DNA from: an uncultured Terrimonas sp.
GTDB taxonomy: Bacteria > Bacteroidota > Bacteroidia > Chitinophagales > Chitinophagaceae
Assembly: GCA_964528095.1 (NCBI GenBank)
Contig: CAZGSG010000029.1
Span: 1-28,677, forward strand
Direction: 5' to 3'
DNA: 28,677 nucleotides
In this document: positions 4,334-5,504 of the stretch, piece by piece
How the letters are laid out: each line of letters starts with the position of its first letter
How positions within the stretch are numbered: the stretch's first letter is position 1
Translations under genes and position numbers: made by a program
Notes under the pieces: model-generated
Told to the model about the DNA's origin: nothing
Database searches by the model: none
Seen by the model: the letters and a program-made list of their open reading frames with translations, nothing else

Positions 4334-4398
4334 AGACGCAATGCCTTGCGTCTCCATCGATAGGTCGTTTCACCAGAGACGCAATGCATTGCGTCTCT
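4333..4398. terminator. Two tandem copies of a GC-rich palindrome, gagacgcaatgccttgcgtctc and agagacgcaatgcattgcgtctct, between convergent genes. They look like a bidirectional terminator or protein-binding element.
   Basis: Perfect 22- and 24-nt palindromes at 4333-4354 and 4375-4398. No flanking U-tract. Confidence 0.45.
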
Positions 4399-5419
4399 AC
4401 ACAGAAGGGGTACTGTACAATTCATGCATCAGTTTCGCTTTACGCCTGATGCGTCGTACAAGAGAATGCGGAGAAAGGACTTTTAGTCCTTCACCGTAAC
4501 CGGTCAGTTCACGTTCGAGTTCAAAATTCGGAATGACATCTATACGGAAAACTACCCCTTCTTTTTTTTCTTCCAGTACCTGCTGTGAAGCATGTATTGG
4601 TTTGGTTTTGATATACGGCGCTTGTAAAGGATCGGCCAGGAAGGTGATGGTTGTCAGAGCATCCCCGCTATTACGGGTTACCCCGACAATATGGGTAAAA
4701 TAGGTATGAGGATCAAATTGTTTGTGTTTCCTGTATTCTTCATCCGGTAGCGACCGGATGGCCTGGATACGGTCCAGTGCAAAGGTGATGATCTCCTTTT
4801 CCTGTTTTTTCATGCCGAGTACGAACCAGCGGTTACGATACTCCTTAAGCAGGTAGGGGTAAAATATGATTTCGCTTGACTGGCGGGCACGGAATGATTG
4901 ATAGGTAAGCTGAATGGTGCAGCGGGAGATAATGGCTTTATATAGAATATCCAGCCATTCAAGACCGGTAAGCAATTCGTTTTTTTCAAAATCGATGACT
5001 GGCGCTTGTTGATGTTGTTCGCTATAGATCTTGTCCTCCAGTCTGCTTACCATTTCACTCACTTCAGTAAAATGACTGAAGCCTTTGAACTGGCGTAGCA
5101 GATGAGAAACATCCTGCAGGATGTTCAGATCCTGGGAAGTAAGCGGTATGTTGGCAATAGAATAATTGGGGTCTGAATAGCTATAGTATTTTTTTTCAGT
5201 AACGACAATAGGTGCATTATAGCCCAGTTCATCACCCCGCATGGCACTAAGGTCCAGGCGGATGGTTCGCAGGCTCACGCCATTGTCCATGCCATCGTAT
5301 TCATAGAGCGCGTCATCACAGGCATTGATTAGATCTGCGATGGTCCACTTTCGCCGGCGATTCTGGAGACATTTATCAATGGCACGATAACGAATAAGGG
5401 CATTCCGATTGGCAGGCAT
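4397..5419 (-). CDS. WYL-domain transcriptional regulator. N-terminal HTH is PANRNALIRYRAIDKCLQNRRRKWTIADL, and a WYL-like segment is NRWFVLGMKK...FALDRIQAI.
   Basis: The N-terminus is typical of Bacteroidota HTH-WYL regulators. 340 aa. Confidence 0.7.
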   Translation of the reverse strand: MPANRNALIRYRAIDKCLQNRRRKWTIADLINACDDALYEYDGMDNGVSLRTIRLDLSAMRGDELGYNAPIVVTEKKYYSYSDPNYSIANIPLTSQDLNILQDVSHLLRQFKGFSHFTEVSEMVSRLEDKIYSEQHQQAPVIDFEKNELLTGLEWLDILYKAIISRCTIQLTYQSFRARQSSEIIFYPYLLKEYRNRWFVLGMKKQEKEIITFALDRIQAIRSLPDEEYRKHKQFDPHTYFTHIVGVTRNSGDALTTITFLADPLQAPYIKTKPIHASQQVLEEKKEGVVFRIDVIPNFELERELTGYGEGLKVLSPHSLVRRIRRKAKLMHELYSTPSV

Positions 5420-5456
5420 AAAAGTTTTTTACAAAAAAAAGGAAAATAAATTAAAC

Positions 5457-5495
5457 TGTGCAAATACATTGCACACATGAGAAATAGGTTTGTGT
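5457..5495. promoter_or_regulatory. Two overlapping inverted repeats in the WYL-gene promoter region: tgtgcaaatacattgcaca and cacacatgagaaataggtttgtgtg. These are candidate operators.
   Basis: Palindromes lie 38-76 nt upstream of the WYL start codon, between it and the divergent tRNA-like block. Confidence 0.4.
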
Positions 5496-5504
5496 GATCA
5501 AAGA

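Follow-up and report, generated by a model that had tools for sequence, protein, structure and literature searches.

A divergent WYL-domain protein as a probable local switch of RNA-repair operons in Bacteroidota

We analysed a 28,677-nucleotide stretch of DNA from an uncultured Terrimonas sp. (contig CAZGSG010000029.1 of assembly GCA_964528095.1), hereafter the window, and in it the control region between a minus-strand gene for a WYL-domain regulator (4397..5419; an open reading frame of 340 amino acids with its ATG at 5419) and a plus-strand series of tRNA-like RNAs, a gene for an SPFH/Band-7 protein and a gene for an RtcB RNA ligase. The regulator is very probably a local RNA-repair switch in Bacteroidota, with the role that RtcR has in E. 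coli, and we hold it highly likely that the protein, the palindromic operator at 5457..5475, the promoter next to it and the operon behind that promoter are functionally linked. A first-pass annotation of this DNA had placed a helix-turn-helix (HTH)-WYL gene on the minus strand with its start at 5419, and SPFH and rtcB genes beyond a block of tRNA-like RNAs, and had proposed from synteny that the WYL protein controls the RNAs, the SPFH-rtcB genes, or both. The gene layout is confirmed: the start codon at 5419 is fixed by the N-terminus MPxNRNALIRYR, which is invariant among homologues of the regulator, and after a gene-free stretch of 900 nt on the plus strand Pfam places the SPFH gene at 6320..7423 (PF01145, 1.2e-26) and the RtcB gene at 7530..8987 (PF01139, 1.1e-81), the NCBIfam RtcB-family matches of the latter all falling under their cut-offs. 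The proposed role is supported by synteny, by a fixed distance between operator and promoter, and by co-variation between the operator and the recognition helix of the protein.

The operator (tgtgcaaatacattgcaca, 5457..5475, or 21 bp at 5456-5476 with its flanking bases; not assigned to a strand) is a perfect 19-bp inverted repeat, in which the half-sites TGTGCA and TGCACA enclose the spacer AATACAT, and no other stretch of the window matches TGYGCA-N7-TGCRCA exactly. Orthologues of the regulator occur at at least 597 loci in GTDB species genomes, of which we sampled 80 from species-representative genomes (81 loci with the window). A TGYGCA-N7-TGCRCA site lies within 400 nt 5' of the orthologous gene in 67 of the 81 loci, mostly 36-43 nt from the ATG, and the whole sequence set scanned (161 sequences, 1.38 Mb) contains 113 such sites, compared to 1.2 in shuffled sequence. 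Between the two half-sites, the inner positions that mirror each other co-vary in every case (83 C..G, 30 T..A and 0 mixed). By this pattern of conservation the palindrome is taken to be a genuine, deeply conserved operator.

The sequence of the half-site also follows that of the protein. Recognition helices of the type RTIR(L/M)DL pair with TGTGCA-type operators in 14 of 14 loci (one of them TATGCA), and those of the type R(T/S)(V/I)Q.D pair with TGCGCA or TACGCA operators in 53 of 53, so that Arg or Gln at residue 54 tracks T:A or C:G in the half-site in 67 of 67 loci. Such a pattern would be expected if residue 54 reads the half-site directly, and it ties the site to the regulator. Loci L031, L038, L042, L043, L047, L049, L059 and L062 have a separate site for each promoter, the two lying about 100 nt from one another. 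The first-pass annotation had spoken of palindromic operators in the plural; both sequences that it quoted are present, tgtgcaaatacattgcaca at 5457-5475 and cacacatgagaaataggtttgtgtg at 5472-5496, and the first is conserved as described, whereas the second (cacaca...tgtgtg) is not kept as an inverted repeat and was rejected as an operator. The stretch equivalent to 5472-5496 has arms of at least 6 nt in 4 of 82 orthologous composite sites, the usual best arm being 3-5 nt, and is composed of the right end of the operator and the bases around the -7 box described below. As a separate observation, the Mucilaginibacter loci L019, L024, L032, L044, L048, L056 and L073 carry short direct repeats TCCGAAATCGAAC(A/T)TCCGAAATC between the operator and the ATG of the regulator gene.

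Alignment of the sites, with the A-rich strand of the 7-nt spacer reading forward, gave a composite element of constant order: an A/T-rich flank, the 19-bp site, 8 nt, a box ending in TTTG, and (A)TCAAA. The TTTG lies exactly 12 nt past the 21-bp site in 78 of the 113 sites and 13 nt past it in 4 more (82 of 113 together), and the same fixed spacing is found at sites that front Rsr and RtcB genes far from the regulator gene. The flank of the composite promoter in the window, aaaaaggaaaataaattaaa (5436..5455, plus strand), is conserved next to the operator, and its form 'aaaataattttta' is kept there even at sites far from any WYL gene. In Bacteroidota, TAnnTTTG is the -7 promoter element and is preceded, about 19-21 nt upstream, by a TTTG at -33, a consensus for which Bayley et al. 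(2000) is reportedly the source. The box TAGGTTTG (5485..5492, plus strand), which begins 8 nt after the 21-bp site, is the sole perfect plus-strand TAnnTTTG between 2986 and 12266; it points toward the RNAs, SPFH and RtcB, and is the predicted -7 box of their transcript. TAnnTTTG is depleted in the window as a whole (17 occurrences compared to 31 ± 6 in shuffles, with at least 17 in 100 of 100 shuffles).

The operator-anchored alignment has a conserved (A)TCAAA 4-5 nt past the -7 box, which puts the predicted transcription start region of the window at the ATCAAA of 5497..5502 (plus strand), just before the conserved 5' end of the first RNA at 5506. Counted from there, the operator spans about -39 to -21 of the target promoter, and no TTG is present at the canonical -33 distance. 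From the RNAs to SPFH, a consensus scan of the plus strand found no terminator-like site; a sigma-70-type promoter scan is uninformative for Bacteroidota. On the side of the regulator gene, the operator is followed at 17-24 nt by a conserved T-run or a box like TAnnTTTG, and loci with two operators have a perfect TATATTTG at the same distance. In the window, the candidate -7 box of the regulator's own promoter is TTTTTTTG (5432..5439, minus strand), and a candidate -33 TTTG, made up of the spacer's end and the half-site, lies 21 nt from it, at 5461-5464 on the minus strand and inside the operator, which would therefore overlap the -33 element of the regulator's own promoter.

The operons that follow the composite promoter were identified by clustering the open reading frames of the 80 orthologue loci and scanning them with Pfam. 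Divergently 5' of the regulator gene we found RtcB, SPFH (usually then RtcB), Ro60/Rsr (TROVE and vWA domains), two RlaP nucleotidyltransferases, and DinB_2, a gene that belongs to the Rsr-type target operons. At least one of RtcB, SPFH, Rsr and RlaP is encoded on the divergent strand within 3.6 kb in 59 of the 72 loci with enough sequence; in 30 of those 59 it is RtcB alone, often beginning about 50 nt past the operator, and Tpt1/KptA is encoded directly 3' of the regulator in five loci. The co-conservation with rtcB or the RNAs whose absence, according to the first-pass annotation, would have spoken against its proposal is thus seen. Further operator-promoter composites precede Rsr or RtcB genes a few kb away in loci L020, L025, L028, L032, L033, L044, L052, L072 and L126, and the predicted regulon therefore reaches neighbouring RNA-repair operons.

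Two side observations concern these loci. Composites that lie several kb from the regulator and are followed by a strong AAGGAGGTT, unusual for Bacteroidota, occur in L020 (1523), L025 (713), L028 (1390), L032 (1287), L033 (2329), L044 (884), L052 (300) and L072 (4393), the Rsr gene being next after them in L033 and L072. Loci L010 and L062, labelled as metagenome-assembled genomes of Acinetobacter pittii and Akkermansia, are Bacteroidota-type regulator loci (66% and 53% identity, respectively), and their contigs are probably mis-binned.

The regulator itself has a WYL domain, an Sm-like beta-barrel sensor (residues 155-222, 4754..4957, minus strand; Pfam PF13280, 2.2e-14, 53.6 bits against a cut-off of 21.8), and a WYL C-terminal extension, WCX (residues 256-330, 4430..4654, minus strand; PF25583, 7.8e-11, 42.6 bits against a cut-off of 23.9). 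The N-terminal 148 amino acids match no HTH model of Pfam, even at E=10; a single-sequence search of the PDB gave no match, a profile search gave weak WYL-domain matches only, and an NCBIfam search gave nothing specific. An AlphaFold2 model built from 29 close homologues was unusable (predicted local distance difference test, pLDDT, 56), and the homologue alignment was then diversified; the model used here was built from 65 sequences of 51-100% identity and has a pLDDT of 76.7. It predicts a winged HTH at residues ~1-85 (5165..5419, minus strand), with helices at 5-19, 27-42 and 50-61 and strands at 71-74 and 78-81 (pLDDT 72-90), followed by two long linker helices, a beta-barrel at 168-224 and a C-terminal alpha/beta domain. 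The predicted recognition helix is the one at residues 50-61 (5237-5272, minus strand), which contains Arg54. Over the full length of the model, Foldseek matched PafBC (2.8e-13) and DriD (1.5e-12), then BrxR, CapW and WYL1, at 12-17% identity. Because of the modelled winged HTH and these full-length matches, and despite the lack of a Pfam HTH match, we class the 340-residue protein as a bona fide but divergent HTH-WYL-WCX one-component regulator. The WYL domain aligns structurally to the C-domain of DriD bound to single-stranded DNA (ssDNA; 7tzv), and K192, E193, R195, N196, R197, W198, F199, A214, L215, D216 and R217 are invariant in the 65 sequences, with R195, R197 and R217 in strands and loops of the WYL domain; this invariance suggests that the sensor is functional.

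The first products of the composite promoter would be the tRNA-like RNAs, whose start the first-pass annotation had put at about 5505, a position that fits the predicted transcription start. The first of them (5506..5699, plus strand) has a 5' GCTCTT that pairs with AAGAGC, about 160 nt lying between the paired ends; the AAGAGC directly follows a T-arm (5673-5691) that matches the tmRNA/tRNA clan. The fold z-score of this RNA is only -1.6 and its exact structure is uncertain. Its 5' end GCTCTTTAGCATAAAAGGAAG is conserved in L005 (Rsr-type), L006, L010 and L016 and absent from most SPFH loci. Further downstream, a permuted tRNA-like module resembling YrlA or 'b7a-tRNA' (5880..5985, plus strand) consists of a closing stem (5880-5883 with 5941-5944), T-arm 1 (5889-5905), a closed acceptor-like hairpin (5906-5921), a D-arm (5922-5939), T-arm 2 (5953-5969) and a further hairpin. 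Rfam matches it as tRNA at 5915-5977 (32.1 bits) and in part as YrlA (RF02553) at 5881-5946 (34 bits, model positions 23-88). That partial match covers the tRNA-like domain only and stays under the gathering score of 69, and the window has no Rsr gene; the module resembles YrlA in the tRNA-like domain and is not filed as YrlA. Modules of this type were found 5' of SPFH in 54 loci, and 18 of the 24 predicted pairs show compensatory changes in a 36-sequence alignment. In every SPFH-type locus the upstream gap is long and carries T-loop motifs on the operon strand, whereas RtcB-only loci have short gaps in which no T-loop motifs were found. The Rfam matches and the compensatory changes indicate that the tRNA-like RNAs are real, and they fit the 'b7a-tRNA' or YrlA-like RNAs that, as quoted in bioRxiv 10.1101/312249, have been predicted next to Band-7 and RtcB.

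The explanation of these data that we favour as a whole, ligand-dependent activation of the operon from the operator combined with autorepression, has in our judgement an even chance of being correct. The regulator would act as a dimeric one-component factor whose two recognition helices read the two half-sites at 5457-5475, and the composite promoter would drive the tRNA-like RNAs, SPFH and RtcB as a single unit. Dimeric binding to an inverted repeat is favoured by the conserved palindrome, its symmetric co-variation and the co-variation of helix and operator. The site would occupy about -39 to -21, the place of the usual -33 element; on binding a single-stranded nucleic-acid damage signal through its WYL domain, the factor would replace the missing -33 contact and activate transcription, in the way that PafBC and SiwR act from their '-26 element'. 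The same site would cover the -33 TTTG of the divergent promoter of the regulator gene and so bring about autorepression. The regulator would in this way be a functional Bacteroidota counterpart of RtcR that works with an unrelated sensor and the housekeeping sigma factor.

Several observations weigh against this explanation or parts of it. The predicted template-modelling score of the AlphaFold2 model is 0.40, that is, only moderate model confidence. The co-variation of helix and operator is essentially one clade-level event (Chitinophagaceae vs. the rest), and the fixed spacing could reflect the inheritance of one cassette and not a mechanical need. Weak -33 elements are frequent in Bacteroidota promoters, so that the lack of a -33 element is weak evidence. 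The neighbours are unrelated in 13 orthologue loci, Bacteroides included, and 7 of those 13 loci, including three from Bacteroides, are without a site within 400 nt 5' of the regulator gene. Synteny was also followed in reverse, from 80 metagenome loci that encode close relatives of the SPFH protein: the regulator is present in 5 of the 34 loci with enough upstream sequence, and the operator in 8 of 47, most of them with the regulator gene. The association of the WYL gene with rtcB, which the first-pass annotation had wished to see checked across Bacteroidota, therefore holds from the side of the regulator and fails from that of SPFH; in general, the SPFH/RtcB operon does not depend on the regulator, and the idea that the regulator is an obligatory part of the SPFH/RtcB system was dropped.

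Loci without the regulator have, on one strand, a tRNA array, an AAA ATPase gene, a PF04308 (RNaseH-like) gene, the motif 'GTTCTTTAAA', a tRNA-like RNA, SPFH and RtcB, and the stop codon of the RNaseH-like gene abuts the GTTCTTTAAA motif. In the window, the regulator gene and the operator-promoter cassette sit exactly at this junction between the RNaseH-like gene and GTTCTTTAAA. Since few SPFH loci have the regulator and the RNA-repair operons behind it are varied, the regulator is a portable regulator-plus-promoter cassette placed before different RNA-repair operons, not an obligatory part of the SPFH system.

The sign of the regulation is the part of the explanation for which the alternative is closest. 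With the same factor, operator and target, the protein could be a repressor that sits on both divergent -33 regions and is released by a damage signal, as proposed for BrxR and CapW. A site over the -33 region, here of both promoters, suits a repressor equally well, and this too counts against activation, as does the fact that BrxR and CapW, which share the fold and are significant Foldseek matches, are repressors. WYL factors of defence systems have been described as repressors as well, and one central palindrome between two divergent promoters is a classic repressor layout. Activation is favoured because the promoter layout is closely like that of SiwR, an activator, and like that of PafBC, and because PafBC and DriD, to which the regulator is closest in structure, are activators. 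The 8 nt between site and -7 box are kept rigidly across families and different target genes, and the target promoter has no TTG where a canonical -33 element would have it, two points that also speak against repression. None of these points is decisive, and our analysis leans somewhat toward activation of the target operon, leaving to the repressor a smaller but considerable probability.

As to the signal, RNA and ssDNA are about evenly balanced. The first-pass annotation had suggested that the WYL protein could be a sensor analogous to RtcR, whose CARF domain senses tRNA fragments. Among RNAs, the candidates are tRNA halves that end in 2',3'-cyclic phosphate, or cleaved copies of the operon's tRNA-like RNAs, which would serve as bait for anticodon nucleases. 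An RNA ligand is treated as a hypothesis and not as the default because the winged-HTH WYL factors with a stated ligand (PafBC, DriD, SiwR and CapW) bind ssDNA and SiwR does not bind single-stranded RNA (ssRNA). The regulator might likewise sense ssDNA arising from DNA damage or phage replication, in which case RNA repair would be one arm of a response to genotoxic stress or infection, with either sign of regulation. To this possibility we assign a probability a little below one half: the ligand of SiwR from Mycobacterium smegmatis is ssDNA and not ssRNA (PMC10693628), a structure of CapW with ssDNA exists, the conserved WYL arginines are shared, the Rsr-type target operons include DinB_2 and SiwR targets DinB-like genes, and DNA-damaging agents induce the rtc operon of Salmonella. 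Against ssDNA stand the function of the linked genes, all of which act on RNA ends (RtcB, Rsr, RlaP and Tpt1), the binding of ssRNA by WYL1, and the suggestion, from authors of surveys of such systems, that WYL factors may be sensors of RNAs that end in a cyclic phosphate. The most far-reaching version, in which the WYL domain reads broken RNA and the regulator would be the first winged-HTH WYL sensor of RNA damage, convergent with the CARF domain of RtcR and spread as a portable cassette across Bacteroidota, seems to us less likely than not. That the palindrome is not the site of the regulator at all, but a sigma-54 promoter, a terminator hairpin or a sequence bound by another factor, with the WYL gene adjacent by chance, is very improbable. 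A consensus scan does list 5475-5457 as a minus-strand terminator-like hairpin, a call that proved to be the operator itself and that lies 5' of a gene start and not after a gene. The palindrome also has a loose likeness to TGGCAC-N5-TTGC, and canonical rtc operons use sigma-54; the critical -24 GG is absent in all site variants, however, and the half-sites co-vary symmetrically, unlike a sigma-54 promoter, by which that reading was ruled out. The palindrome also tracks the WYL recognition helix and is nearly absent from SPFH loci without the WYL gene.

The other neighbours of the regulator are, on its far side and convergent with it, an AAA ATPase gene (2726-3802) and a PF04308 RNaseH-like gene (3824-4333), which are preceded by four tRNA genes (2279-2706); the remainder of the window is a polysaccharide-synthesis locus. 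The nearest protein relatives and the related loci are from Chitinophagaceae. The AAA ATPase/RNaseH-like pair (2726-4333 in the window) accompanies the island in almost every close relative, in one order or the other, and lies directly 5' of the tRNA-like RNA and SPFH in loci without the regulator; it may be a further, undescribed part of the SPFH/RtcB system. Many Chitinophagaceae loci have tRNA arrays of 4 to ~18 genes with a period of ~78 nt beside the RNA-repair island (window 2279-2706; L005 10188-11769; L016 8811-10347; L093 2902-3862; L110 1623-2756; L120 69-1423), and in loci without the regulator these arrays lie on the same strand just 5' of the AAA ATPase, RNaseH-like, tRNA-like RNA, SPFH and RtcB genes. 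They may be ordinary tRNA clusters of the genome or a spare set connected with tRNA repair. The tRNA at 2279-2351 of the window was found by Rfam (50.9 bits) and not reported by ARAGORN. The RNaseH-like gene and the WYL gene convergent with it have between them two hairpins of almost the same sequence, AGAGACGCAATGC(C/A)TTGCGTCTC (4334-4400), which could serve as terminators in both directions or form a small repeat element.

RtcR of enterobacteria is the only case in which it is understood how bacteria sense damaged RNA and turn on its repair. The regulator described here is very probably a second such switch, unrelated to RtcR, in the Bacteroidota, a large phylum whose members live in soil and gut, and the analysis supplies for it an exact operator, a predicted promoter and transcription start, a specificity pair (Arg/Gln54 with T:A/C:G) and a small predicted regulon (RtcB; SPFH and tRNA-like RNAs; Ro60/Rsr, RlaP and DinB; Tpt1). 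A single purified protein and a 60-bp DNA fragment are enough to test directly what the signal is, and, if the ligand is RNA, the range of signals sensed by WYL transcription factors widens. The 'b7a-tRNA' or YrlA-like RNAs, whose existence was without experimental validation according to bioRxiv 10.1101/312249, are now the predicted first products of an inducible promoter. In the literature, with the 2016 survey of Burroughs and Aravind represented by papers that cite it, we found no description of the regulator family or of its operator, promoter or regulon, and experimental work on a WYL protein that regulates RtcB was not found either. Later publications by the Burroughs and Aravind group state in general terms that some CARF and WYL factors regulate RNA-repair pathways, and it is possible that the association of WYL and RNA-repair genes was already listed in the 2016 survey.

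Among known systems, we file the regulator as a local WYL regulator, a known kind, and as functionally analogous to RtcR. It shares with BrxR and CapW (~290 amino acids, from anti-phage systems) the fold, a palindromic operator in a divergent control region and probable autoregulation; unlike theirs, its gene has no anti-phage system adjacent, the neighbours being RNA-repair genes in 59 of 72 loci. The only PADLOC matches of the regulator were to generic WYL models, and SPFH and RtcB had none.

SiwR (stress-involved WYL regulator), an activator that acts from the -26 region through a 19-bp imperfect palindrome between -10 and -35 (PMC10693628), resembles the regulator in its HTH-WYL-WCX architecture, in a gene divergent from the controlled operon, in a 19-bp palindrome just upstream of a -10-type element, and in target operons that include DinB-superfamily genes, here those of the Rsr type; SiwR is a homodimer, as we propose for the regulator. 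The two differ in that SiwR is actinobacterial and targets DinB-like genes, whereas the regulator is linked to RNA-repair genes and a Bacteroidota -7/-33 promoter, and a sequence search detected no sequence relation between them. PafBC promoters have no -35 element and follow the pattern tGTCgg-N10-tAnnnT, so that, as in our composite, the element of the factor lies at a fixed short distance before a -10-type box (~10 nt for PafBC, 8-9 nt here). The control region has the fixed site and the lack of a -33 or -35 element that mark PafBC and SiwR targets; its promoter is of the Bacteroidota sigma A kind, so the resemblance is one of layout only. Activators of this '-26 element' type (sigma adaptation) are characterised by ligand-dependent activation through contact with sigma region 4. 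PafBC and DriD are the best structural matches and the WYL arginines are conserved, at an identity of only 12-15%. PafBC, however, is a heterodimer, uses a half-site that is not palindromic and has a regulon of ~150 genes, and both PafBC and DriD respond to ssDNA; unlike them, the regulator is linked to local RNA-repair operons and to a symmetric site.

The operon itself resembles the Band-7/'b7a-tRNA'/RtcB RNA-repair system, a prediction of Burroughs and Aravind (2016) as quoted in bioRxiv 10.1101/312249: RtcB lies next to a Band-7 gene, with a tRNA-like RNA gene upstream that, according to the same quotation, is sometimes replaced by YrlA-like RNAs. In the window, the SPFH gene adjoins RtcB, and the pair recurs in related loci. 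RtcR, the activator of rtcBA or rsr-yrlBA-rtcBA, combines CARF, sigma-54 AAA+ and HTH domains. Like RtcR, the regulator is encoded divergently from an RtcB operon, in some species together with Ro60/Rsr and tRNA-like Y RNAs, and its ligand-sensing domain belongs to a kind that was noticed first in regulators associated with CRISPR. Unlike in RtcR, Pfam finds in it only WYL and WCX, with no CARF and no AAA+ domain, and its control region has a -7 box and no sigma-54 promoter, the -24 GG being absent in every site variant. The regulator is thus an analogue of RtcR, not a relative.

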